A DNA stretch of 32,000 bases, from assembly GCA_001695645.1 (NCBI GenBank), contig LVZN01000034.1, forward strand, positions 30,001 through 62,000, written 5' to 3'. The position numbers and the translations under genes are program-made. The notes under the pieces are model-generated. The model was not told the DNA's origin and did no database searches. It was given only the letters and a program-made list of their open reading frames with translations. Source of the DNA: Erysipelotrichaceae bacterium MTC7. Its GTDB lineage: Bacteria; Bacillota_I; Bacilli_A; Erysipelotrichales; Erysipelotrichaceae. How positions within the stretch are numbered: position 1 is the stretch's first letter; each line of letters begins with the position of its first letter. Positions 1 through 9,829 of the stretch are shown piece by piece.

Positions 1-213
1 TCTGACGAAATATTAACTCTTGCTGCACAGGAAGTTTTCAATTTAAGACCTGCAGCCATTATTGAAAATCTACGTCTTAGAAATGTGATTTACTCTGACA
101 CCGCGGCTTATGGTCACTTTAATAGTTGTCTATTCCCGTGGGAGGATGTAAATAAGTACAGTGAATTTAGAAAGGCGGTGGAAAAGTATGTTGATAGAGA
201 AGATAAAAACTAA
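1..213 (+). CDS. metK: S-adenosylmethionine synthetase, C-terminal fragment (5' end outside the window)
   Basis: Frame-1 translation is SDEILTLAAQEVFNLRPAAIIENLRLRNVIYSDTAAYGHFNSCLFPWEDVNK... It carries the conserved MetK C-terminal signature (RP..II..L.L....Y..TAAYGHF...FPWE). Stop TAA at 211-213. Confidence 0.8.
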   Translation, partial: SDEILTLAAQEVFNLRPAAIIENLRLRNVIYSDTAAYGHFNSCLFPWEDVNKYSEFRKAVEKYVDREDKN

Positions 214-1429
214 ACAACTCATCCCCGCTGAATATAACCCAAGGAAGGATTTAAAACCGGGTGATCCGGAATATGAGAAACTTAAACGCTCCCTTGAGGA
301 GTTTGGATATGTAGAACCCGTAATATGGAATAAGACTACAGGCAGAGTCATTGGAGGCCATCAACGTTTGAAAATCCTGCTGAGTATGGGCATGGATGAG
401 ATAGATTGTGTAGTTGTTGAAATGGATGAGCAAAAGGAGAAGGCGCTGAACATTGCACTAAATAAAATAAGTGGTGATTGGGATAAAGACAAATTAGCAC
501 TTCTCATCACGGACTTAAATGCTTCAGACTTTGATGTGTCTTTGACAGGTTTTGACCCGGGAGAGTTGGAGGATCTTTTCAAGGATTCCCTTAAGGATAA
601 TATAAAAGAAGATGATTTCGATGTAGACAGCGAGCTGAAAAAGCCCGCTGTTTCGCATTTAGGGGATATTTGGCTACTTGGGCAGCATCGATTAGTCTGC
701 GGAGACAGTACAAAGAAAGACACCTTTAATGTCTTGATGGATGGGAAAACTGCTAATTTGGTAGTTACGGACCCTCCATATAATGTTAACTATGAAGGCA
801 CTGCTGGAAAAATCAAAAATGACAATATGGCTAACGAAGCGTTCTACGATTTCCTGCTTGCAGCATTTCAGAACACCGAAGCAGCGATGGCAAAGGACGC
901 TTCTATTTATGTATTCCATGCGGATACCGAAGGACTCAATTTTAGAAGAGCATTCTCCGATGCAGGATTTTATCTTTCCGGTACTTGTATATGGAAAAAG
1001 CAGTCCCTTGTTCTCGGTCGCTCTCCTTATCAGTGGCAGCATGAACCTATTCTCTTTGGGTGGAAAAAGAAAGGCAAGCATAACTGGTATTCCGATAGAA
1101 AGCAGACCACCATCTGGGAATTTGAGAAACCGAAGAAAAACAGTGATCATCCTACGATGAAGCCAGTTGCACTTGTGGCCTACCCTATTTTGAACTCAAG
1201 CCTTTCTAATTGTATCGTGCTTGATCCTTTTGGTGGTTCAGGAAGCACGCTGATTGCCTGTGAGCAGACAGATAGAATCTGTTACACCATTGAACTGGAT
1301 GAAAAGTACTGTGATGTCATTGTGAAAAGGTATATTGAGCAAGTTGGAAAATCAGACAGTGTGTTTCTTTTAAGAGATGGTTCGAAAATAAGATATTGTG
1401 ACCTGCCGGACGTTACTACCGCCGATTAA
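188..1429 (+). CDS. ParB-like nuclease domain fused to an N6-adenine/N4-cytosine DNA methyltransferase (beta-class)
   Basis: The N-terminus has the ParBc motif (YNPRK...VIGGHQRLKIL). The middle has DPPY (VVTDPPYNVNY). The C-terminus has the AdoMet motif (LDPFGGSGSTLIA). The ORF is open from 161. ATG 188 follows AAGGCGGTGG and is the likelier start, overlapping the metK 3' end by 26 nt. Confidence 0.9.
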   Translation: MLIEKIKTKQLIPAEYNPRKDLKPGDPEYEKLKRSLEEFGYVEPVIWNKTTGRVIGGHQRLKILLSMGMDEIDCVVVEMDEQKEKALNIALNKISGDWDKDKLALLITDLNASDFDVSLTGFDPGELEDLFKDSLKDNIKEDDFDVDSELKKPAVSHLGDIWLLGQHRLVCGDSTKKDTFNVLMDGKTANLVVTDPPYNVNYEGTAGKIKNDNMANEAFYDFLLAAFQNTEAAMAKDASIYVFHADTEGLNFRRAFSDAGFYLSGTCIWKKQSLVLGRSPYQWQHEPILFGWKKKGKHNWYSDRKQTTIWEFEKPKKNSDHPTMKPVALVAYPILNSSLSNCIVLDPFGGSGSTLIACEQTDRICYTIELDEKYCDVIVKRYIEQVGKSDSVFLLRDGSKIRYCDLPDVTTAD

Positions 1430-1467
1430 TGGAACAGTATTTTCTACAGAAAGATGTTCTAAATGAC

Positions 1468-1510
1468 TTGATATTAACAGCCTTTAGAGTGATATATGTA
1501 TGTACCGAAA
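1468..1510 (+). promoter_or_regulatory. Putative sigma-A-type promoter/operator, copy 1 of a duplicated motif
   Basis: TTGATA (1468-1473), a 17-nt spacer, then GATATA/TGATATATG (1490-1498). The block TTTAGAGTGATATATGTA (1483-1500) is identical to 2622-2639, and both copies are followed by CCGAAA. It lies ~30 nt upstream of the 1531 start. Confidence 0.45.
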
Positions 1511-1530
1511 ATAGAAAGGCGGTATAAAAA

Positions 1531-2319
1531 ATGCAGATAAACTATAATGTCACAGGAGCAAAAAGAAAAGAGCTAGTCAATGCAATCAGCCAAAAACTGA
1601 ATGCTCCTGCAAGATATCTTGGAGCACCTACATTTGCATATGAAGTGGCAGACTACAATATTGACAAAAACGGGGTAGTCAGAGGACCAGATAATTCTGA
1701 ACTGGTTAATAATCTATTAGGCCTTCATGACTTTAAGGCGGTTACAGTAGAATTTGACACACCACTTCCAAAAGCAGAGCCTGTTCTTGAAAATATTCAA
1801 GTTCCTAATGAAGCGGCTCTTGGGGGTAGGGTAAGTCCAAATAGTGATTACGAAGAACCTCCCGTATACAGCGAATCAAATGAAACCGAAGAAGCTATTA
1901 GTTTGATTATTCAAATGCCGAGGGAGGGTTTTAGCGAAACTGCACTTGGTAACCTAAAAGGATTGGTAGAAAGCAAAGAAACCCTTATAAAGAAAGCACT
2001 TGATACTGACTCTATTCCCATTATCATAAATGAGGAATTTATAACCTTCCCTTGGTTCCAGAGTGAGTGCTCCGCAGAGGAGGTTAAGGCTTATACCCAC
2101 TTTGTAACAGCACTTTGTGAAATGGCAAAGAAACAGACTCGCGTCAACTCGACCGAGAAATCAGTGGAGAATGAAAAGTACGCTTTCCGTTGTTTCCTTC
2201 TAAGACTTGGCTTTATCGGGTCAGAATACAAAACAGAACGAAAAATTCTCCTCTCCAAATTGTCGGGTAGCTCTGCCTTCAAAAGCGGAAGTGCCAAGCA
2301 TGAGGAGGTGAGTGAATAA
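1531..2319 (+). CDS. Conserved phage/ICE-type protein of unknown function. Its C-terminal ~40 aa are shared with the downstream amidoligase.
   Basis: 262-aa ORF with an RBS (GAAAGGCGG) and an acidic low-complexity linker in the middle. The C-terminal ENEKYAFRCFLLRLGFIGSEYKTERKILLSKLSGSSAF aligns with the C-terminus of the 2682-3581 product. I recall this N-terminal pattern (..RKELV.AIS...G....YLG.P.FAY.V) from Firmicutes mobile elements but cannot name a function. Confidence 0.7.
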   Translation: MQINYNVTGAKRKELVNAISQKLNAPARYLGAPTFAYEVADYNIDKNGVVRGPDNSELVNNLLGLHDFKAVTVEFDTPLPKAEPVLENIQVPNEAALGGRVSPNSDYEEPPVYSESNETEEAISLIIQMPREGFSETALGNLKGLVESKETLIKKALDTDSIPIIINEEFITFPWFQSECSAEEVKAYTHFVTALCEMAKKQTRVNSTEKSVENEKYAFRCFLLRLGFIGSEYKTERKILLSKLSGSSAFKSGSAKHEEVSE

Positions 2320-2546
2320 TGAATATCATTCATCCAGAAATGCTAAAGCAACTTAGAAGTTATTACACTCCAGGAACTCGAGTCATGTTACTTAAGATGA
2401 ATGACCCTTATACCAAGCTTCAGCCAGGAGATAAAGGTACGGTTACTAGCGTTGATGATTTGGGAACTATCCACGTCAGTTGGGATTCAGGCAGTTCCCT
2501 TGGAGTGGTTTTTGGAGAGGATTTATGCAAGAAAATCGAAGAATAA
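2319..2546 (+). CDS. Small DUF4314-like protein
   Basis: 75-aa ORF. Its start overlaps the upstream stop (TAATG). The motif LKMNDPYTKLQPGDKGTVTSVDDLGTIHVSWDSGSSLGVV matches my recollection of the DUF4314 family common in Clostridia phages and ICEs. Confidence 0.7.
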   Translation: MNIIHPEMLKQLRSYYTPGTRVMLLKMNDPYTKLQPGDKGTVTSVDDLGTIHVSWDSGSSLGVVFGEDLCKKIEE

Positions 2547-2606
2547 AAACACACATTTTAAGCCCAATATGGCAGTAAATATGTAGATTTATGTTGCAGA
2601 ATTGTC

Positions 2607-2649
2607 TTGCTATATAAGCCTTTTAGAGTGATATATGTACATGCCGAAA
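2607..2649 (+). promoter_or_regulatory. Putative sigma-A-type promoter/operator, copy 2 of the duplicated motif
   Basis: TTGCTA (2607-2612), a 17-nt spacer, then GATATA/TGATATATG (2629-2637). The 18-nt core TTTAGAGTGATATATGTA (2622-2639) is identical to copy 1. It lies ~35 nt upstream of the 2682 start. Confidence 0.45.
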
Positions 2650-2681
2650 GGACAAACACACTTTAAAAGGAGCGATACACG

Positions 2682-3581
2682 ATGTTAAGTGCAAAATTCG
2701 GGATTGAGATTGAATTTACCGGGATTACAAGGGAAAGGGCAGCCAAAGTCGTTGCAGAGTATTTGCAAGGCATTTACAGTGAAGGCGGGACTTACTACGA
2801 CACCAAGAAGGTAAAAACTCCAGATGGTCGAGTGTGGAAGTTTATGTACGATGGGAGCATCAACTGTCAAAGAAAAGAAGGTAGAAGAAAAGTAGCTGCA
2901 GGTAGAGCTTATAGTGTTGAGCTGGTTAGTCCAATCCTAACCTACCGGGAGGACATTGAAACTTTGCAAGAGCTAGTAAGAAAGCTTCGCAAAGCTGGAG
3001 CCTTTACAAATACATCTTGCGGAATTCACATTCATCTAGACGGTGCTGAACATACCCCACGAAGCATTCGAAACTTTGTAAATATCATTGCAAGCAAAAA
3101 TGACTTATTTTATAAAGCACTTCAGATTGCACCGCAGAGAATGAATTACTGCAAAAAGATGGACAGCATTTTGGTTGAGAAGATGAACCGTAAAAAGCCT
3201 AAAACCATGAGACAAATTGAGGACATTTGGTACGAAGGTTACAGCGAGAGTAGAAGCACTCATTACCACAACAGCCGCTACCATTTCCTCAACCTTCACA
3301 GCTTTTTTACCGGAAACCATACAGTTGAACTTAGAGGATTCAATAGCGAACTTCATGCAGGAAAGATAAGAAGCTACATTGTTCTAGCACTTGCCATCAA
3401 CCACCAAGCCTTAACACAAAAGTGTGCATCAGCAAAGAAACCGCAGGTGGAAAACGAAAAATTTGCCATGAGAACCTATCTAAACCGGATTGGTTTCATT
3501 GGAGATGAATTTGCAAACTGCAGAGAACATTTGACAGCAGCACTTTCGGGTTCAGCTGCATGGCGGTTTCGGGCGGCCTGA
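2682..3581 (+). CDS. Putative amidoligase (glutamine-synthetase-like fold, Amidoligase_2-type)
   Basis: Strong RBS (AAAAGGAG). The strand motifs FGIEIEFTG, YSVELVSPIL, CGIHIHLDG and VELRGFNS are typical of the GS/GCS2-like carboxylate-amine ligase fold as seen in the Amidoligase_2 family. The gene is followed by an AIG2/GGCT gene, the neighbourhood described for Firmicutes members. Confidence 0.8.
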   Translation: MLSAKFGIEIEFTGITRERAAKVVAEYLQGIYSEGGTYYDTKKVKTPDGRVWKFMYDGSINCQRKEGRRKVAAGRAYSVELVSPILTYREDIETLQELVRKLRKAGAFTNTSCGIHIHLDGAEHTPRSIRNFVNIIASKNDLFYKALQIAPQRMNYCKKMDSILVEKMNRKKPKTMRQIEDIWYEGYSESRSTHYHNSRYHFLNLHSFFTGNHTVELRGFNSELHAGKIRSYIVLALAINHQALTQKCASAKKPQVENEKFAMRTYLNRIGFIGDEFANCREHLTAALSGSAAWRFRAA

Positions 3582-3619
3582 GCTGCCCCTAACTCACAAA
3601 GCTAAGAAGGAGGATTACA

Positions 3620-4078
3620 ATGAAGAATAAATTATACCTTGCCTATGGCTCCAACCTTAATCTAAAACAAATGGCCGACAGATGCCCCACAGCGAAGGTG
3701 GTAGGAGCAAGTCAAATCAATGACCACCGCCTATTATTTCGAGGGGCACACGCGGGCGCTGTGGCGACAATCGAGCCTTTTGAGGGTGGCAACGTACCAG
3801 TTTTAGTTTGGGAGATTACACCGACCGATGAAGCGGCACTTGACCGTTACGAGGGATGGCCGTTCCTTTATCGAAAGGAAACAATAAAAGTGAAGTTGGG
3901 AAGCAAAACCGTCAAGGCGATGGTCTACATCATGAATGATGGTAGACCGCTTGGACAGCCGAGTTGTTATTATTACAGTACAATTTTAGAAGGCTATAAG
4001 AGTGCGGGCTTCGATGTGGAAATCCTGCGCAAAGCTACAACTGATTCAATAGAATCGGAGGAGGTAGCCAATGAATGA
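3620..4078 (+). CDS. Gamma-glutamyl cyclotransferase / AIG2-like family protein
   Basis: RBS AAGGAGG. The N-terminal LYLAYGSNLNLKQMADRCP matches the GGCT/AIG2 signature (YGSN/L...M..R.P). A conserved LDRYEG..FLYRK block follows. Confidence 0.85.
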   Translation: MKNKLYLAYGSNLNLKQMADRCPTAKVVGASQINDHRLLFRGAHAGAVATIEPFEGGNVPVLVWEITPTDEAALDRYEGWPFLYRKETIKVKLGSKTVKAMVYIMNDGRPLGQPSCYYYSTILEGYKSAGFDVEILRKATTDSIESEEVANE

Positions 4079-4259
4079 GATAATTAAGCAACAAATCCTT
4101 TCCATCCGAGAAAGTGGAGTCACAAATATGTTTGATGTGGACCGAGTACAGTATGAGGCAAATGAACGAGGGTTTTATGAATTGGTAGTCTATTTAATAG
4201 ACCATAAAGCAGAATATGCCCATTTCATACTGACGGGTGAAGTGGATAAAAAGAAATAA
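4071..4259 (+). CDS. Small DUF5049-like protein
   Basis: 62-aa ORF overlapping the GGCT stop by 8 nt (ATGAATGA). The motif ILSIRESGVTNMFDV matches my recollection of DUF5049. Confidence 0.65.
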   Translation: MNEIIKQQILSIRESGVTNMFDVDRVQYEANERGFYELVVYLIDHKAEYAHFILTGEVDKKK

Positions 4260-4278
4260 CTAAATCTAAATAGGATAG

Positions 4279-4316
4279 AGAAAAGGGCTTCATCTATAGG
4301 ATTGAGGCTCTTTTCT
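4279..4316 (+). terminator. Hairpin with A-tract/T-tract arms (possible intrinsic terminator) immediately upstream of terL
   Basis: AGAAAAGGGCTTCA (4279-4292) pairs with TGAGGCTCTTTTCT (4303-4316): 14 pairs including 2 G-U, with a 10-nt loop. The core stem is modest (4 G-C pairs). Confidence 0.5.
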
Positions 4317-4347
4317 TATGTCCTTTTCCATAAAAGGGGCGGTGTTT

Positions 4348-5952
4348 ATGCGGAAACTGAAGAAATATAAGCCGACCGCCTTTATAGCTGAAGGGTCATA
4401 TTACGATAAGGACGCTGCTGATTACGCTGTGGCTTTTATCAAAGCACTCTCCCATACGAAAGGTTCATGGGCAGGCAAGCCTTTTGAACTTATCGACTGG
4501 CAGGAACAAATTGTCCGTGATTTATTCGGTATCTTAAAACCTAATGGATACCGGCAGTTTAACACGGCTTATATAGAAATACCTAAAAAGATGGGAAAAA
4601 GCGAGCTTGCAGCAGCAATCGCACTTCTCCTCACTTGTGGAGATGGTGAAGAACGAGCAGAGGTATACGGTTGTGCCGCAGATCGCCAGCAGGCATCAAT
4701 TGTATTTGAAGTAGCAGCCGATATGGTGCGGATGTGTCCAGCGCTGAATAAACGAGTGAAGTTGCTGGCTTCAACTAAACGACTGGTGTACCTGCCGACC
4801 AACAGCTTTTATCAGGTATTGTCGGCTGAAGCCTATTCAAAACACGGCTTCAATATACATGGTGTTGTTTTTGATGAACTTCATACTCAGCCAAATAGGA
4901 AACTATTTGATGTTATGACAAAAGGGTCCGGTGATGCGAGGACCCAACCACTATATTTTCTTATCACCACTGCAGGGACGGATACCCAGAGTATCTGCTA
5001 TGAAACACACCAAAAAGCGGTTGATATTATTGAGGGCAGAAAATACGATCCTACTTTTTATCCCGTAATCTACGGTGCCAAAGAAGAGGATGATTGGACT
5101 GATCCTAAAGTATGGAAGAAAGCAAATCCAAGCTTAGGAATTACAGTAAGTATCGATAAAGTTAGAGCAGCTTGTGAAAGCGCAAAGCAGAACCCTGCTG
5201 AGGAAAATAGCTTTCGACAACTGCGTTTGAACCAGTGGGTTAAGCAATCTGTCCGTTGGATGCCAATGGCAAAGTGGGATGCCTGTGCGTTTCCAGTAAA
5301 ACCAGAGAGCCTTGAAGGTAGAGTATGCTATGGAGGACTTGATTTATCCTCTACCACTGACATTACAGCCTTCGTGCTGGTGTTCCCACCGGAAGATGAA
5401 ACAGATAAATATACCGTTCTCCCGTATTTTTGGATGCCGGAGGATAATATTGACCTCCGAGTTCGACGAGACCACGTGCAATACGACCTTTGGGAGAAGC
5501 AAGGCTATATTTTAACCACCGAGGGAAATGTAGTCCATTATGGATACATTGAAAAATTCATTGAAGAACTGGGGGAAAAGTACAACATTCGAGAGATTGC
5601 TTTTGACCGCTGGGGCGCTGTTCAGATGGTGCAAAATCTTGAAGGGTTAGGCTTTACTGTAGTTCCTTTCGGTCAAGGTTTTAAAGATATGTCACCACCT
5701 ACAAAGGAACTTATGAAGCTGACATTAGAAGAAAGAATAGCACACGGCGGGCATCCAGTACTACGGTGGATGATGGATAACATCTATATAAAAACAGATC
5801 CGGCTGGAAATATAAAACCGGACAAGGAAAAAAGTACAGAAAAAATAGATGGAGCAGTGGCAACTATTATGGCACTCGACCGCGCCATCCGCTGTGGACC
5901 AGGTAATAGTGGAGACTCGGTGTATGACGAGAGAGGTTTGTTTATACTTTAA
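4348..5952 (+). CDS. terL: Terminase large subunit (Terminase_1/COG4626-type)
   Basis: Motifs present: GKPFELIDWQEQIVRDLFG, a Walker A-like PKKMGKSEL and Walker B VVFDELH. The C-terminal nuclease region has DGAVATIMAL. The ORF is open from 4318. ATG 4348 follows AAAAGGGG and lies outside the hairpin, so it is preferred. Confidence 0.95.
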   Translation: MRKLKKYKPTAFIAEGSYYDKDAADYAVAFIKALSHTKGSWAGKPFELIDWQEQIVRDLFGILKPNGYRQFNTAYIEIPKKMGKSELAAAIALLLTCGDGEERAEVYGCAADRQQASIVFEVAADMVRMCPALNKRVKLLASTKRLVYLPTNSFYQVLSAEAYSKHGFNIHGVVFDELHTQPNRKLFDVMTKGSGDARTQPLYFLITTAGTDTQSICYETHQKAVDIIEGRKYDPTFYPVIYGAKEEDDWTDPKVWKKANPSLGITVSIDKVRAACESAKQNPAEENSFRQLRLNQWVKQSVRWMPMAKWDACAFPVKPESLEGRVCYGGLDLSSTTDITAFVLVFPPEDETDKYTVLPYFWMPEDNIDLRVRRDHVQYDLWEKQGYILTTEGNVVHYGYIEKFIEELGEKYNIREIAFDRWGAVQMVQNLEGLGFTVVPFGQGFKDMSPPTKELMKLTLEERIAHGGHPVLRWMMDNIYIKTDPAGNIKPDKEKSTEKIDGAVATIMALDRAIRCGPGNSGDSVYDERGLFIL

Positions 5953-5976
5953 CTTCTACAAGTTTTTTGGTATAAT
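5948..5976 (+). promoter_or_regulatory. Extended -10 promoter for the DHFR-family moron
   Basis: TGGTATAAT (5968-5976) is a consensus extended -10. A weak -35 (TTTAAC, 5948-5953) sits at 17-nt spacing. Confidence 0.5.
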
Positions 5977-6044
5977 ATTAAAAAATAATTTTACTATGGA
6001 AGAGTAATTTAATATGTGTACGTATTAGAAAGGGGTTAATTAAA

Positions 6045-6557
6045 ATGAGTATATTTTTTTATGGCTGTATAACTATGGATGGCTATCTAGCTGGTAAAAA
6101 CCATAACATGGACTGGCTATATCAAGCCGGTACAATAGAAGAAACTGATTATGAAAGTTTCTATAAAAGTATGGATATTACTATCATGGGCAAAAGGACA
6201 TTTAACGAAATTGAAAATATTGAGAATATAGATAGCTTTTATCCAACCACTAAAAACTATGTTTTTACACATGCTGAAAGCTTATCAGTTGAGGGGTTTA
6301 TTCCTGTTAATTGTGATATAGTAGAGTTTGTTAAACAAATAGAAAAGGATAAAAACATTTGGGTTATTGGAGGGAACACAATATTAGCTCCTTTATTAGA
6401 TAATGATATGGTAGATAATATGATAATACAGATTGCTCCTGTGTTATTGGGGAAGGGAATACCATTGTTTTCACAGAAGGAAGCATTAAAGCGATTTTCC
6501 TTGAAAGAAGTAAAAAAATACGGACAATTTGCAGAATTAATTTATAATAAAATATAG
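6045..6557 (+). CDS. Dihydrofolate reductase family protein (RibD C-terminal domain type)
   Basis: 170 aa. FFYGCITMDGYLAG...MDWL, ITIMGKRTF, IWVIGGNTI and IQIAPVLLGKGIPLF are typical RibD_C/YwjB-like motifs. RBS GAAAGGGG. Hand counts on a few 60-nt lines give ~30% GC versus ~45% in neighbouring phage genes. Confidence 0.85.
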   Translation: MSIFFYGCITMDGYLAGKNHNMDWLYQAGTIEETDYESFYKSMDITIMGKRTFNEIENIENIDSFYPTTKNYVFTHAESLSVEGFIPVNCDIVEFVKQIEKDKNIWVIGGNTILAPLLDNDMVDNMIIQIAPVLLGKGIPLFSQKEALKRFSLKEVKKYGQFAELIYNKI

Positions 6558-6613
6558 CTTCACAACTTTTATACTATATGTTACTTAACTATGTGTTTGA
6601 AATATTCAAATTT

Positions 6614-6642
6614 AAAGCATCTCTTTACGAGGTGCTTTTTTT
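6614..6642 (+). terminator. Rho-independent terminator after the DHFR-family gene
   Basis: AAAGCATCTC (6614-6623) and GAGGTGCTTT (6629-6638) form a 10-bp stem (1 G-U) with a 5-nt loop, followed by a T-run. Confidence 0.7.
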
Positions 6643-6663
6643 ATGTCCATTTCAAGGAGAGTG

Positions 6664-7914
6664 ATGCTGATGAGATTATTTGCTAATATTTTTAAAGCTC
6701 GGGATAAACCGCAAAATCGTATCGGTAGTGCATTTTCATTCCTGTTTGGCAGCACGACAGCTGGCAAAACAGTGAATGAGCGCACTGCAATGCAGGCAAC
6801 AGCGGTGTATGCCTGCGTAAGAATACTAGCTGAAGCTATTGCTGGACTGCCACTACATGTATATAGATATCGTTCTGATGGAGGTAAAGAAAAGATTCCT
6901 TTCCACCCTTTGTATTACCTTCTTCATGATGAACCAAATCCAGAGATGACTTCATTTGTGTTTCGAGAAACACTGATGAGTCATCTTTTACTTTGGGGTA
7001 ATGCTTATGCACAGATAGTTCGAAATGGTCGTGGCCAGGCAATTGCGCTTTATCCCCTACTTCCTAACAAGATGGAAGTAAGTCGAGCATCAAATGGTGA
7101 ACTGGTTTATACCTACTACCGGGATACAGACGAAAGTGGCCTGAATCCAAAGGGAGGCTATGTCACACTTCGCAAAGATGATGTACTTCACATACCAGGT
7201 TTAGGTTTTGATGGACTCATTGGCTATAGCCCTATTGCTATGGCAAAAAATGCAATCGGTATGTCACTTGCTACTGAAGAGTACGGTGCGGCATTCTTTG
7301 CTAATGGAGCCAATCCCGGCGGTGTGCTGGAGCACCCGGGAGTAATTAAAGACATACAGAGAGTGAAGGATAGCTGGAATAGTGCTTACCAAGGCACAGC
7401 TAAGGCACATAAAATCGCTGTATTGGAAGAGGGCATGAAGTTTCAAGCCATCGGTATACCTCCAGAACAGGCTCAGTTTTTAGAAACACGGAAATTTCAA
7501 ATCAATGAGATTGCGAGGATTTTCCGTGTGCCTCCCCATATGGTGGGAGATCTTGAGAAATCTAGTTTCTCCAATATCGAGCAGCAGTCTTTGGAGTTTG
7601 TAAAATACACTCTCGATCCGTGGGTGGTGAGATGGGAGCAAAGTCTCCAGCAATCGCTTATTTTGCCTTCTGAGAAAACATCAGTATTCATCAAGTTCAA
7701 TTTAGATGGTCTGCTGCGCGGCGATTATCAAAGCCGAATGAATGGCTATGCTATCGGGCGGCAAAATGGCTGGATGTCAGCTAATGATATCCGTGAATTG
7801 GAGGACATGAACCGTATCCCAGCTGAGGAAGGTGGCGATTTATATCTGGTTAACGGAAATATGACGAAACTGGCTGACGCAGGAGCGTTTGCCAAAACCG
7901 AAGGAGGTCAGTAA
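6664..7914 (+). CDS. Portal protein (HK97 family)
   Basis: Conserved blocks: TAVYACVRILAEAIAGLPL, LLLWGNAYAQIV, FFANGANPGGVLEHPG and QFLETRKFQINEIARIFRVPPHMVG. RBS AAGGAGA at 6654-6660. The start is ATG 6664 or 6670; the ORF is open from 6643. Confidence 0.93.
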   Translation: MLMRLFANIFKARDKPQNRIGSAFSFLFGSTTAGKTVNERTAMQATAVYACVRILAEAIAGLPLHVYRYRSDGGKEKIPFHPLYYLLHDEPNPEMTSFVFRETLMSHLLLWGNAYAQIVRNGRGQAIALYPLLPNKMEVSRASNGELVYTYYRDTDESGLNPKGGYVTLRKDDVLHIPGLGFDGLIGYSPIAMAKNAIGMSLATEEYGAAFFANGANPGGVLEHPGVIKDIQRVKDSWNSAYQGTAKAHKIAVLEEGMKFQAIGIPPEQAQFLETRKFQINEIARIFRVPPHMVGDLEKSSFSNIEQQSLEFVKYTLDPWVVRWEQSLQQSLILPSEKTSVFIKFNLDGLLRGDYQSRMNGYAIGRQNGWMSANDIRELEDMNRIPAEEGGDLYLVNGNMTKLADAGAFAKTEGGQ

Positions 7915-8604
7915 ATGAAGAAGTTCTGGAATTGGGTGCGAGATTCTGATGAAGGGCGCACTCTCTATTTAAATGGAGTGATATCCGAAGAAACATGGTG
8001 GGGTGATGAGGTCACACCTAAGATGTTCAAAGATGAACTGCTGGCTGGCACCGGTGATATTACAGTGTGGATTAACTCTCCTGGCGGGGATGTGTTTGCA
8101 GCAGCGCAGATTTACAACATGCTTATGGACTATACAGGAAAGGTTACTGTAAAAATTGACGGGCTTGCGGCAAGTGCAGCTTCTGTTATTGCAATGGCGG
8201 GTGGAGATGTATATATGTCGCCGGTATCCATGATTATGATTCATAACCCTTCGACCATTGCCATCGGTGACAGCGAGGAAATGCTGCGAGCTAAAGCTCT
8301 ATTAGATGAGGTTAAGGAAAGTATTATTAATGCCTATGAGTTAAAGACTGGTCTTTCCCGAACAAAGCTTTCTCACCTGATGGATGCAGAATCATGGATG
8401 AATGCAAACAAAGCCATAGAACTTGGTTTTGCAGATAAGATCATGTTTATGGAAAGTGAAACACCGGATTTGACGGATAGCCTTATCTTTAGCAGGATGG
8501 CGGTTACCAACTCACTTATTAGCAAACTACCTAAAAAACAAAAACAAAAAACAGGTACACCTATAGAGTCGCTGGATAAGCGGCTTTCTTTAATTTCTCA
8601 CTAA
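7915..8604 (+). CDS. Prohead (head maturation) protease, ClpP-like S14 family
   Basis: Motifs INSPGGDVFAAAQIYNML, GLAASAASVIAMAG and IMIHNP. Position between portal and capsid genes. RBS GAAGGAGG. Confidence 0.93.
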   Translation: MKKFWNWVRDSDEGRTLYLNGVISEETWWGDEVTPKMFKDELLAGTGDITVWINSPGGDVFAAAQIYNMLMDYTGKVTVKIDGLAASAASVIAMAGGDVYMSPVSMIMIHNPSTIAIGDSEEMLRAKALLDEVKESIINAYELKTGLSRTKLSHLMDAESWMNANKAIELGFADKIMFMESETPDLTDSLIFSRMAVTNSLISKLPKKQKQKTGTPIESLDKRLSLISH

Positions 8605-8623
8605 TTTAAAGGAGGAAATAACA

Positions 8624-9829
8624 ATGAGTAAAATTCTTGAATTGCGCGAGAAACGCGCTAAGGTTTGGGATGCGGCGAAGGCATTCCTTGATTCAAAACG
8701 TGGCGGTGATGGATTGTTATCCGCAGAGGACACACAAACCTATGAAAAGATGGAAGCTGAAGTTGTTGCACTTGGTAAGGAAATAGAACGTTTGGAACGT
8801 CAGGCGGTTATTGACTTAGAACTTTCCAAAGCCACAAGTAGCCCTATTACAAACACACCGTCCAAACATGCTGAAGATAAGACAGGACGCGCGTCTGCAG
8901 AGTACAAGAAAGCATTCTGGAATGCTATGCGTACTCGTGCAGGGGAAGGCCTTGATGTAAACGTAAGAAATGCCCTTCAAATTGGTACAGACTCCGAGGG
9001 TGGTTATCTTGTGCCTGACGAGTTTGAACGTACCTTAGTAGAGGCTCTTGAGGAAGAGAACATTTTCCGTTCACTGGCCAATGTTATCAATACATCTTCT
9101 GGCGATAGGAAAATTCCTGTTGTAGCTACAAAAGGTACTGCTTCCTGGGTGGATGAAGAAGGCACTATCCCAGATAGCGATGATAGCTTCGGACAGGTTT
9201 CTATAGGAGCTTACAAACTCGCTACCATGATCAAAGTTTCCGAGGAACTTCTTAACGATTCTGTGTTCAATCTTGAAGCCTACATCTCTAAGGAGTTTGC
9301 AAGGCGTATCGGTAACAAAGAGGAAGAGGCGTTCTTTACCGGTGATGGATCTGGAAAACCGACAGGTATCCTTGCTTCTACAGGTGGTGCCCAAATTGGT
9401 GTGACTACTGCAGGTGCTGCGGCAATTACAATGGACGAGGTACTTGATCTGTTCTATTCATTAAAGGCACCTTACCGTAATAAGGCTGTATTCGTTATGA
9501 ACGACGCCACTGTAAAAGCAATCCGTAAACTAAAGGATGGTCAAGGACAGTACCTATGGCAACCTTCCTTACAGGCAGGTACACCGGATACTATCCTCAA
9601 TCGACCATTGTATACTTCTGCATATATGCCAACTATTGCTGCAGCTGCGAAGAGTATCGCATTTGGTGATTTTAGTTATTACTGGGTAGCTGATCGTCAG
9701 GGTCGTGTATTTAAGAGGCTTAATGAACTTTATGCTGTTACTGGCCAAGTAGGCTTTGTTGCAACTCAGCGTGTGGATGGAAAATTAATTCTACCTGAAG
9801 CCATAAAAGTACTTCAGCAGAAAGCTTAA
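8624..9829 (+). CDS. Major capsid protein (HK97 family) with an N-terminal delta/scaffold-like coiled coil
   Basis: An N-terminal helical Lys/Glu-rich segment, then GGYLVPDEF, ASWVDEEG, EEAFFTGDGSGKPTGIL and QYLWQPSL, typical of HK97-type MCPs. RBS AAAGGAGG. Confidence 0.95.
   Translation: MSKILELREKRAKVWDAAKAFLDSKRGGDGLLSAEDTQTYEKMEAEVVALGKEIERLERQAVIDLELSKATSSPITNTPSKHAEDKTGRASAEYKKAFWNAMRTRAGEGLDVNVRNALQIGTDSEGGYLVPDEFERTLVEALEEENIFRSLANVINTSSGDRKIPVVATKGTASWVDEEGTIPDSDDSFGQVSIGAYKLATMIKVSEELLNDSVFNLEAYISKEFARRIGNKEEEAFFTGDGSGKPTGILASTGGAQIGVTTAGAAAITMDEVLDLFYSLKAPYRNKAVFVMNDATVKAIRKLKDGQGQYLWQPSLQAGTPDTILNRPLYTSAYMPTIAAAAKSIAFGDFSYYWVADRQGRVFKRLNELYAVTGQVGFVATQRVDGKLILPEAIKVLQQKA

Follow-up and report, generated by a model that had tools for sequence, protein, structure and literature searches.

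The locus raises the question of what a glutamine-synthetase-like amidoligase and an AIG2-type gamma-glutamylcyclotransferase (GGCT) accomplish side by side in a prophage, and whether the five genes packed around them at positions 1531-4259 constitute one system, as the “five-gene coupled cassette” of the original prediction had it. All positions refer to the window, i.e., the whole stretch of 32,000 nucleotides analyzed. With moderate confidence, we propose that the region consists of two units, a pair of enzymes that would make and then resolve a gamma-glutamyl amide, and a separate, older backbone comprising ORF1 and its small companions.

The five open reading frames (1531-2319, 2319-2546, 2682-3581, 3620-4078, and 4071-4259) are all present on the + strand in the ORF listing, as are the 1-nt overlap of the ORF1 stop and the DUF4314 start (TAATG, 2317-2321) and the 8-nt overlap of the GGCT stop and the DUF5049 start (ATGAATGA, 4071-4078). 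The overlaps claimed for this block thus stand, but its uniform packing does not, given a 135-nt gap (2547-2681) in which a conserved promoter-like element appears for the second time; ligase and GGCT are separated by 38 nt. In this HK97-type Bacillota prophage, both units lie within an accessory island (MetK, ParB-methylase, and others) flanked by TerS and TerL, the block from MetK and the methylase through DUF5049 being contained entirely between the two terminase genes. Profile matches bore out the expected neighbors: the 3′ end of a SAM synthetase (MetK) gene (1-213, +; PF02773 S-AdoMet_synt_C, E 3.7e-10), truncated at the window edge, whose full-length counterpart in a 98% identical locus (L003:4255-5532) matches all three MetK domains; a ParB_N-fused N6/N4 DNA methyltransferase (161-1429, +; PF01555, E 6.6e-30; phrog_498, E 6e-190), with a ParB_N match just below the cut-off (E 1.3e-5); and, downstream, TerL (4318-5952, profile search). 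The MetK fragment, which lies outside the enzyme pair, and the methyltransferase are context, and so are two hairpins in the spacer before TerL (4277-4341, +), an imperfect 13-14 bp stem (4277-4316) and a terminator-like site (4319-4341), where a weak, non-significant Rfam match was obtained. Since TerL relatives align only from residue 4-11 on, TerL translation may in fact begin with the ATG at 4348. Reading of the N-termini by eye revealed no obvious signal peptide or long hydrophobic stretch in the five proteins. Prophages of many genera carry DNA with 97-98% identity to this island, and their host genomes include Clostridia as well as Bacilli.

The 299-aa product of 2682-3581 (+) belongs to Amidoligase_2 (PF12224, E 4.6e-79; 266 bits, cut-off 22), and the motifs first noticed in it (FGIEIEF, SVELVSP, CGIHIHLD, and ELRGF) were all found. 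Its active site keeps every family-invariant acidic, His, and Arg residue: E9, E11, E80, H116, H118, E216, and R218 are invariant across seven very divergent phage homologues, and are kept in 170-171 of 171 unique ligase sequences. The AF2 model (pLDDT 88.9, pTM 0.89) found its best Foldseek PDB matches in Dop (9cku, 7oyh), YbdK (1r8g, 1tt4), and glutamine synthetase (prob 0.87-1.0), although with low TM values of 0.39-0.43. The predicted fold and the metal/ATP-site residues are of the same kind as in YbdK/GCS2, whereas no sequence-level match to any solved ligase was found. The protein is a predicted ATP-dependent carboxylate-amine ligase of the glutamine-synthetase/GCS2/PafA-Dop type. An additional basic module of two helices occupies its C-terminus (about aa 250-299), contains many invariant Arg and Lys residues, and is common to ORF1 (38% identity, E 9e-14).

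The 152-aa product of 3620-4078 (+), which begins MKNKLYLAYGSNLN, was recognized as a GGCT/AIG2-like gamma-glutamyl cyclotransferase by its YGSNL motif, its catalytic Glu, and its matches to PF06094 (E 2.9e-12), PF13772 (E 2.4e-9), and phrog_2520 (E 8e-48), in agreement with the identity originally assigned. Human GGCT is the closest solved GGCT by sequence (E 5.8e-6), and the alignment spans the catalytic residue, E78 here corresponding to E98 in the human enzyme. Of the 146 unique sequences in the family, at least 136 have YGSNL and 145 have E78. At the level of sequence, the family assignments and intact active sites of both enzymes are established here; ligase and cyclotransferase look genuine and appear catalytically competent.

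Their inheritance is tightly coupled, and the co-occurrence is far beyond chance. GGCT presence equals amidoligase presence in 176/176 related loci, with none discordant, through at least 14 gain or loss events of the pair, as inferred from presence/absence changes on a simple NJ tree of ORF1t (the ORF1-type gene), itself a recombining gene. In two lineages, every adequately flanked locus (66/66 and 47/47) has both genes; among 45 ORF1t-anchored Javan191-like loci, the same 10 carry both enzymes and 35 neither. In the subset of these flanked by at least 6 kb on both sides, GGCT goes with the ligase (9/9 vs. 0/28, p 8e-9); a single further gene family, one DUF5049 subtype, shows a positive association (8/9 vs. 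1/28), which may be a lineage effect. The link is kept in Arthrobacter and Bacillus phages, where ligase identity falls to 23-27%, and, among 32 very divergent phage loci (diverse IMG/VR), about 19-20 also have GGCT. No third gene always accompanying the pair was found. GGCT is thus the obligate partner of the ligase, and together they form a widespread two-gene accessory unit that is gained or lost as one.

The remaining genes behave differently. ORF1 (1531-2319, +; 262 aa; phrog_2443) is named “virulence protein” by NCBI, belongs to a family of more than 8000 relatives, and gave no Pfam, NCBIfam, or PADLOC match. Nonetheless, hhalign aligned its family with that of the ligase (Prob 99.2, E 6e-20, 211 columns) over the full length (ORF1 1-255 vs. 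ligase 6-299), with N4, N6, I126, Q128, T172, and P174 opposite the ligase residues E9, E11, H116, H118, E216, and R218, and no residue opposite E80. Across the ORF1 family (194 unique sequences), the commonest residues facing E9, E11, E216, and R218 are N/T/R/K/H, N/H/K, S/R/T, and P, respectively. The alignment identifies ORF1 as a ligase paralogue that, judged from its sequence, has lost the catalytic residues, which the original prediction had overlooked; keeping the basic C-terminal module, it probably works by binding, not catalysis. DUF4314 (2319-2546, +; 75 aa; PF14192, E 3.5e-32) comes after ORF1t in nearly all loci, and two natural ORF1t-DUF4314 fusions exist (P0087 and P0179). DUF5049 (4071-4259, +; 62 aa; PF16468, E 4.2e-32) lies directly 3′ of DUF4314 where the enzyme pair is missing, giving the order methyltransferase, ORF1t, DUF4314, DUF5049, TerL in loci with neither enzyme; the methyltransferase is the constant left neighbor, adjoining ORF1t in 45/45 Javan191-like loci. 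The ORF1-DUF4314-DUF5049 backbone is kept in the 35/45 Javan191-like loci that lack both enzymes, which speaks against one five-gene system.

The promoter-like elements also argue against a single cassette, as ORF1 and the ligase each stand behind their own. P1 (1468-1498, +; TTGATA-12 nt-AGAGTGATATATG) ends 33 nt before the ORF1 start codon, and P2 (2607-2637, +; TTGCTA-12 nt-AGAGTGATATATG) 45 nt before that of the amidoligase; a 69-nt direct repeat (1461-1529 and 2600-2668) includes both sites. The core of the element has two copies in the 32 kb window, against none expected by chance. P1 is conserved at the equivalent position in related loci, where the element is also found 5′ of the ligase gene or, if this is absent, ahead of other cargo genes (DUF7698, DUF7678). 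Ligase leaders commonly bear a UGCC-GAAA-GGCA-type 5′ hairpin, and such hairpins at the leader start are consistent with transcription beginning just downstream of the element. Both units would be transcribed from this repeated element, a reading against which its awkward distance to a canonical −10 hexamer counts.

In the proposed explanation, the first unit would be a self-contained accessory pair, running from the promoter-like element at 2607-2637 through the amidoligase to GGCT. The ligase would couple free L-glutamate, through its gamma-carboxyl, to a primary amine on a cytoplasmic substrate (R-NH2), and the cyclotransferase would cleave the resulting gamma-glutamyl amide into 5-oxoproline and freed R-NH2. 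The enzymes would thus act consecutively on one transient intermediate (“make and resolve” or “protect and deprotect”), in place of placing and erasing a stable mark; strict co-inheritance and probable co-transcription fit consecutive pathway steps better than two antagonists. Glutamate is suggested as acyl donor by the partner enzyme alone, and we infer the action of GGCT on the ligase product, as well as everything said of the target of the pair. The second unit, the older backbone, would comprise its promoter-like element, ORF1, DUF4314, and possibly DUF5049, the pair having entered between DUF4314 and DUF5049. Such a route resembles the gamma-glutamyl cycle and butirosin biosynthesis, where the ATP-dependent ligase BtrJ attaches a gamma-glutamyl group to an amine, to be removed later as 5-oxoproline by the AIG2-type BtrG from the same cluster. 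The protect-deprotect logic is the same; however, BtrJ is an ATP-grasp enzyme, not glutamine-synthetase-like, and acts on a substrate carried by an acyl carrier protein, which is absent here; the likeness is one of working mode, not of family membership. Likewise, the pairing corresponds to two consecutive steps of the gamma-glutamyl cycle, with a GGCT most like the human one, whereas glutathione synthetase and 5-oxoprolinase are not linked to the pair. The order could also be the reverse: GGCT would release an amine from a gamma-glutamyl compound of the host, for subsequent use by the ligase. Both enzymes acting on one small amine would amount to a net, ATP-burning conversion of glutamate into 5-oxoproline, for which a rationale or an intervening step is needed and none was found.

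The pair had been pictured as a writer and an eraser, the ligase gamma-glutamylating lysines (or ligating another residue) on a protein of phage or host, and GGCT taking the mark off, which we now consider unlikely. The protein-modifying Dop/PafA clade is among the best structural neighbors of the ligase, with Dop at the top, and an active enzyme beside a diverged paralogue recalls the PafA/Dop duality; but here the paralogue has entirely lost its catalytic residues, no Pup-like tag ending in a conserved GGQ/GGE is present, and the partner is a GGCT, which cannot act where the alpha-amine of the Glu is tied up in a peptide bond. In favor of the idea, the disordered acidic tail of ORF1t ends in E/Q more often in ligase-positive loci (115/135 vs. 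27/50), a statistic that ignores phylogeny; no conserved small tag emerged, however, the DUF4314 and DUF5049 C-termini being variable. GGACT-type enzymes do cleave epsilon-(gamma-glutamyl)-lysine, although their known activity concerns the free isopeptide, not proteins. Besides, genes in tandem behind one promoter-like element and never apart would be odd for antagonists.

The same low probability is given to a DNA or nucleotide modification or counter-restriction step performed with MetK and the ParB-methylase, e.g., by transiently gamma-glutamylating an aminated base or nucleotide precursor. The pair is located in the methylase/MetK island, a ParB-type methylase recurs beside the ligase in 9/32 very divergent phage loci, the C-terminal module is rich in invariant Arg/Lys, and thymidine-hypermodification clusters occur together with Pfam-amidoligase and amidotransferase genes (PMC8989533). 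On the other hand, the methylase-ORF1t backbone occurs without the pair, the ligase does not adjoin a methylase in Bacillus and Porphyromonas phages, and the TerS-TerL island genes include no base-hydroxymethylating or base-aminating enzyme.

That the pair blocks superinfection by modifying peptidoglycan or a cell-wall precursor seems rather improbable, even though peptidoglycan stem peptides include a gamma-glutamyl amide and the pair's own promoter-like element would permit expression in the lysogen. It is a recurrent literature hypothesis for phage amidoligase/GGCT/GATase/ATP-grasp cassettes, attributed in later papers to Iyer 2009 and Hardies 2013. The podovirus “peptidoglycan modification cassette” (phiEco32, RIO-1/PSA-HP1, LUZ24, PaP3, tf, UFV-P2) resembles the window in combining Amidoligase_2 with GGCT and in having two ligase-like genes per cassette; Arthrobacter phage Wheelbite provides an intermediate form, GGCT-AmLig-GATase. 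However, that cassette adds COOH-NH2_lig, a class-II GATase, and ATP-grasp, all missing here (no other Pfam family, PF14395 included, matched the five products up to E 0.1), and lies in the early region of lytic podoviruses, whereas the window pair belongs to a temperate siphovirus-type prophage, where TerS and TerL flank its island, with a second ligase-like gene that is catalytically dead. Moreover, lacking an obvious signal peptide, the enzymes would reach only cytoplasmic precursors, their neighbors (MetK, methylase, terminase) are DNA-directed, and the near-identical island spans Clostridia and Bacilli, where cell-wall chemistry likely varies. The least probable reading is metabolic rewiring through a gamma-glutamyl cycle (Glu and ATP to 5-oxoproline via a catalytic amino-acid acceptor) or gamma-glutamyl peptide salvage, which would need only two genes, in line with the lack of a third obligate partner, and is favored by the resemblance to human GGCT, whose substrates are gamma-glutamyl amino acids, and to YbdK, a weak gamma-Glu-Cys ligase, but offers no evident benefit for the ATP and glutamate spent, has no linked thiol metabolism genes, and sits poorly in an island devoted to DNA and packaging.

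Amidoligase_2 (PF12224) with an AIG2/GGCT neighbor was reportedly described in Firmicutes mobile elements by Iyer, Abhiman, Burroughs, and Aravind in 2009. The window locus shares with that Firmicutes arrangement (Iyer 2009) the ligase family, partner family, host phylum, and prophage context, and nothing essential differs. The pair can hence not be called “undescribed,” as had been suggested, being an often-cited prediction whose ligase-GGCT link has been cited since 2009 (Iyer 2009, via citing papers). The identical layout was annotated in 2012 as Orf18-24 of Tn6164 in C. difficile M120 (TerS, MetK, methylase, “virulence-related protein,” amidoligase, AIG2/GGCT, terminase), and matching layouts occur in C. 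clostridioforme and Terrisporobacter prophages. The searchable literature yielded no demonstrated experimental function for the pair, as the original prediction had held. The window locus is accordingly a typical member of a known, uncharacterized kind, to which the present analysis adds, relative to the papers examined, that the second “amidoligase” is a dead paralogue, that ligase and GGCT form an indel unit, and that a promoter-like element is shared by the two units.

The five genes between 1531 and 4259 resolve into two units: ligase and GGCT, behind a promoter-like element of their own, form an obligate two-gene unit, and ORF1, DUF4314 and DUF5049 (the backbone) are a separate, older one, in which the fusion proteins P0087 and P0179 tie the ORF1-type family (ORF1t) to DUF4314. 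All five open reading frames (ORFs) of the original prediction were recovered on the + strand in the ORF listing, namely ORF1 (1531-2319, 262 aa), DUF4314 (2319-2546, 75 aa), the ligase (2682-3581, 299 aa; Pfam Amidoligase_2), GGCT (3620-4078, 152 aa; PF06094 and PF13772) and DUF5049 (4071-4259, 62 aa), with clean Pfam matches for both DUF proteins. Both reported overlaps, of 1 nt (TAATG, 2317-2321) and of 8 nt (ATGAATGA, 4071-4078), are present in the sequence, but the packing is not uniform: 135 nt separate DUF4314 from the ligase, a gap that is not empty, and 38 nt separate the ligase from GGCT. The neighbours are also as claimed, with a SAM synthetase (MetK) gene, in whose 3' end the window begins, a ParB_N-fused N6/N4 methylase (161-1429) and TerL (4318-5952). 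None of the five proteins was matched by NCBIfam or by the PADLOC defence-system models, megablast of 1400-4400 matched nothing among GenBank phages, and an Rfam scan of 1-7000 gave no significant match. At the downstream border, two hairpins occupy the spacer between DUF5049 and TerL (4277-4347), and, since relatives align to TerL only from its residue 4-11 on, the protein may really begin at the ATG at 4348 and not at 4318.

The motifs FGIEIEF, SVELVSP, CGIHIHLD and ELRGF, read earlier as glutamine-synthetase-like, all lie in the 299-aa product, which matches PF12224 with 266.2 bits (cut-off 22; E 4.6e-79), aa 4-239 covering positions 3-244 of the 245 in the profile. The original prediction had named a missing ligase active site as evidence against itself; the acidic, histidine and arginine residues E9, E11, E80, H116, H118, E216 and R218 (ExE, E, HxH, ExR) are kept in 170-171 of 171 unique sequences drawn from 276 loci. 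Seven phage homologues with identities down to 21%, from Bacillota prophages and from Arthrobacter, Bacillus and Porphyromonas phages, share the invariant positions G7, E9, E11, W52, K53, D57, S59, E80, V82, P84, C113, G114, H116, H118, C157, R199, N204, E216 and R218. No solved structure in the PDB matched by sequence, and querying IMG/VR with the ligase of the Bacillus phage brought up no relatives. The AlphaFold2 model (pLDDT 88.9, pTM 0.89) has as best Foldseek matches in the PDB the depupylase Dop, YbdK (GCS2) and glutamine synthetases (prob 0.87-1.0), and its predicted fold is of the glutamine-synthetase/GCS2 type despite low TM-scores (0.39-0.43). Profile, residues and modelled fold together place the protein in Amidoligase_2 as a predicted ATP-dependent amide ligase.

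The AIG2/GGCT call for the 152-aa product, which starts with MKNKLYLAYGSNLN, was upheld by scores above the cut-offs for PF06094 (47.7 bits, cut-off 22.8) and PF13772 (38 bits, cut-off 27); the protein also matches phrog_2520 (E 8e-48) and human GGCT structures (E 5.8e-6), with E78 opposite the catalytic E98. Of 146 unique sequences, at least 136 keep the YGSNL motif (Y9-G10-S11-N12-L13) and 145 the catalytic Glu. Considering HMMs, motif and Glu, the protein belongs to the GGCT/AIG2 family and is a predicted cyclotransferase.

The association of both enzymes was followed over four locus sets, chosen by window-like ligases (80 genome loci), by NatCom_991-like ligases (80 IMG/VR loci), by Arthrobacter-like or diverse ligases (30 loci) and by a Javan191-like ORF1-type gene as anchor (80 loci, three of them shared with the NatCom_991 query); the ORFs of all loci were classed with HMMs built for this analysis. 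Where flanks were adequate, GGCT accompanied the window-like ligase in 66/66 loci, the NatCom_991-like ligase in 47/47 and the Arthrobacter-like or diverse ligases in 8/11, with a class-II glutamine amidotransferase (GATase) in 3/11. The 45 adequately flanked Javan191-like loci all have the order methylase, ORF1t, DUF4314, with TerL nearby in 44; ten carry the ligase, the same ten carry GGCT, and the remaining 35 keep methylase, ORF1t and DUF4314 with neither enzyme, which is incompatible with a five-gene cassette working as one system, as had been proposed. In the pair-less loci DUF5049 directly follows DUF4314, and in many phages ORF1 works without either enzyme. One enzyme without the other was seen in 0/176 unique loci, and parsimony on the ORF1t tree requires at least 14 presence/absence changes of the pair. 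In an enrichment test GGCT tracked the ligase (9/9 vs 0/28, p 8e-9), as did one DUF5049 subtype and no other gene positively; a third obligate partner was not found in this test, and the remaining gene associations are phage-lineage effects. The predicted coupling is therefore confirmed by adjacency, by the lack of discordant loci (0/176) and by the joint gains and losses, and the co-occurrence is beyond chance. Further afield, GGCT, ligase and class-II GATase are consecutive in Arthrobacter phage Wheelbite, ligase and GGCT lie four genes apart in Bacillus phage 031MP002, and the commonest ligase neighbours in 32 divergent phage loci are GGCT (~19-20), a ParB-type methylase (9) and GATase (6).

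ORF1 has no direct Pfam match and shares one PHROG (phrog_2443) with the ligase. BLASTP aligns the last 80 residues of both proteins at 38% identity (E 9e-14), a stretch outside the Pfam ligase domain, and hhalign of 97 ORF1-type proteins against 65 ligases (Prob 99.2, E 6e-20, 211 columns) spans ORF1 1-255 and ligase 6-299, so that the homology is full-length. A ligase insert at ~150-210 is missing from ORF1. At the catalytic positions, E9 is replaced by N4, E11 by N6, H116 by I126, H118 by Q128, E216 by T172 and R218 by P174, and no ORF1 residue stands opposite E80. Over 194 unique ORF1-type sequences the commonest residues are N/T/R/K/H opposite E9, N/H/K opposite E11, S/R/T opposite E216 and P opposite R218, the two His-equivalent positions having been read in the ORF1 of the window only. 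The ORF1 model has a pLDDT of 76.6, with disorder at 77-122 and 252-262, and Foldseek gave nothing significant against the PDB and BFVD, with glutamine synthetases and phage amidoligases among weak matches only; the homology claim therefore rests on the hhalign sequence profiles. By these profiles ORF1 is an Amidoligase_2 relative over its full length and, because the aligned catalytic residues are replaced, not an active member of the family, probably acting through binding and not catalysis.

The best-conserved part of ORF1-type proteins is a C-terminal module (NEKYAFRCFLLRLGFIGxEYKxxRKxLLxxLSGSSAF), whose basic residues R204, K216, R220, R225, R237 and K238 are essentially invariant in the 194 sequences; among ligases it occurs in the Bacillota-prophage branch only, and by itself it has no Pfam match. 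The ORF1-type tail is disordered and acidic, with the motif E-[VI]-S-[EK] (residues 252-262, window 2284-2319); its last residue is E/Q in 115/135 unique sequences from ligase-positive loci versus 27/50 from ligase-negative ones, counted with kinship ignored. The natural ORF1-type + DUF4314 fusions, of ~300 aa, suggest that both proteins act together. DUF4314 has a weak, non-significant likeness to the MIB/HERC2-type SH3-like domain of HECTD1, the MIB domain of this protein being its only match among PDB sequences (E 0.057), and to the UBE2O SH3-C domain (E 0.011, under the cut-off of that domain); DUF5049 had no match in the PDB sequence search. The ORF1 family, with more than 8000 protein clusters matched, is named "virulence protein" by NCBI and "virulence-related protein" in phage records. 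None of the findings favours a virulence role, and "inactive amidoligase-like protein" would describe the family more accurately.

Ligase and ORF1 also share their upstream DNA, a 69-nt direct repeat at 1461-1529 (upstream of ORF1) and 2600-2668 (upstream of the ligase), the core of which has only these two sites in the 32 kb (0 expected by chance). The consensus over related loci, cTTGCTAT-N12-AGAGTGATATATG, is near-invariant (window copies at 1468-1498 and 2607-2637), and 192 distinct instances, 110 of them non-redundant, were collected across very divergent phages (L001-L275, the related loci compared). The element has the orientation of the genes, its distance to the start codon that follows being 25-60 nt in most cases; the only sites on the opposite strand are a few loose, two-mismatch matches. 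We read it as a putative common promoter, with transcription predicted to start directly behind it, and its spacing to a canonical -10 hexamer is unusual. A structured RNA was considered instead and rejected, since the 5' hairpins that open the leaders lie downstream of the invariant core. The hairpin of ORF1-type leaders is formed by TACC(G/A) and, at the ribosome-binding site, (C/T)GGTA, and shows compensatory changes; a UGCC-GAAA-GGCA hairpin is common in ligase leaders. A literature search on the DNA motif gave no relevant paper. In ligase-less phages the same element precedes other small island genes, DUF7698 and DUF7678 (e.g., at 9398-9763 of locus L204 and 9177-9419 of locus L218), and the TerS-TerL island (the block between small and large terminase) thus behaves as a slot for exchangeable cargo.

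The upstream limit of this island is visible in L003, a 98%-identical locus in which primase/helicase, SNF2 helicase, a DUF1492/sigma-region-4 regulator and an HNH endonuclease are followed by a P27-type small terminase, MetK and the methylase; the whole MetK-to-DUF5049 block therefore lies between TerS and TerL. Downstream of the regulator gene and upstream of the HNH gene (L003:3150-3290), three TTGGCA(C/T)A repeats, a TATAAT box and a terminator-like hairpin possibly make up a late-operon control region. Window 1-9000 is 97-98% identical to prophage DNA (L003-L014) from several genera of Clostridia (Clostridium thermopalmarium, Alkalithermobacter, Anaeromicropila, a Christensenellaceae MAG) and Bacilli (Robertmurraya, Bacillus sp. 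PS06, Ureibacillus), which is an unusually broad range of hosts for a single type of phage. A RibD_C/DHFR-like gene (6045-6557, in region 5956-6700) of low GC (0.34) between TerL and portal is missing in these relatives, the alignments skipping from 5955 to 6701, which suggests an insertion specific to the window.

That ligase and GGCT genes are neighbours in Firmicutes elements is reportedly already part of the work of Iyer et al. in 2009 and of the Pfam PF12224 description, and the window pair compares well with such phage pairs, being adjacent and co-inherited, with the link kept in Arthrobacter and Bacillus phages. Later papers invoke Iyer et al. (2009) for a cell-wall/superinfection hypothesis and call the function unexplored. 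Annotations of this gene order date from 2012 for C. difficile Tn6164 and from 2024 for prophages of C. clostridioforme and Terrisporobacter, and the layout is shared by phages of the proposed order Heliusvirales, which is reportedly widespread in the human gut. Among phages or prophages reported as active, Terrisporobacter TPDSL_ph1 has annotations for both enzymes and Faecalibacterium phage FP_Taranis for the ligase. The novelty originally claimed was thus overstated; given these annotations, the earlier hypothesis and the 97-98% identical prophages in several genera, the window pair is a typical member of a known, computationally predicted kind. Compared with the larger "peptidoglycan modification cassette" of lytic podoviruses, which has a GATase, an ATP-grasp and a second ligase family, the window holds a minimal version: class-II glutamine amidotransferase, ATP-grasp and COOH-NH2_lig are absent among the TerS-TerL island genes, all of which are accounted for, and a GATase HMM built for this analysis found no match across the window. 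Three details, namely that ORF1 is a dead paralogue, that the pair behaves as an indel unit and that a promoter-like element is present, were not found in the literature searched, two key older papers lying outside it.

Ligases of the GS/GCS2/PafA type use ATP to activate a carboxylate, which they couple to an amine, and GGCT-type enzymes require a gamma-glutamyl group with a free alpha-amine, releasing 5-oxoproline and the amine. The simplest chemistry using both enzymes would be that the ligase joins free glutamate to a primary amine, giving gamma-Glu-NH-R, which GGCT would then resolve. A transient intermediate handled in two successive steps, for which the gamma-glutamyl cycle and BtrJ/BtrG in butirosin synthesis are precedents, is favoured over an antagonistic writer/eraser, because the two genes are never separated and are probably on one transcript. 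No obvious signal peptide was seen in any of the five proteins when their N-termini were read by eye, so the substrate should be cytoplasmic; as candidates, the pair may place a mark on a protein, act on a cell-wall precursor, modify DNA or nucleotides in connection with the methylase island, or simply convert glutamate in metabolism. Rather improbable is a reading in which the dead paralogue ORF1t is a binding adaptor for phage DNA or a packaging-associated target, and the active pair a plug-in transiently gamma-glutamylating this same target as counter-defence; its basis is the family size (>8000 clusters), the constant position of this Bacillota-prophage backbone gene between methylase and TerL, the invariant basic C-terminal module and the acidic tail. 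As for Pup-like tags, DUF4314 and DUF5049 were rejected for their variable lengths and C-termini with no conserved end, and, unlike the small disordered Pup with its conserved C-terminal Gly-Gly-Gln/Glu, ORF1t is folded and of 220-260 aa, its E/Q end being frequent and not invariant.

Of the unexplained genes in Bacillota prophages, those of the ligase-GGCT pair and of the ORF1t family are some of the commonest, with thousands of protein clusters from each search, and their role has been conjectured since 2009 with no experiment in the searchable literature. The problem is now narrowed to two genes inherited together, three genes being dropped from the system, and a misleading NCBI annotation is corrected, the "virulence protein" being an inactive paralogue of the ligase; phages that carry the pair and relatives that lack it serve as natural controls. 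Were the adaptor reading of ORF1t true, it would represent a new kind of pseudoenzyme-guided transient modification, and phage-host biology would gain a new reaction type if the pair proves to gamma-glutamylate a molecule of phage or host transiently.
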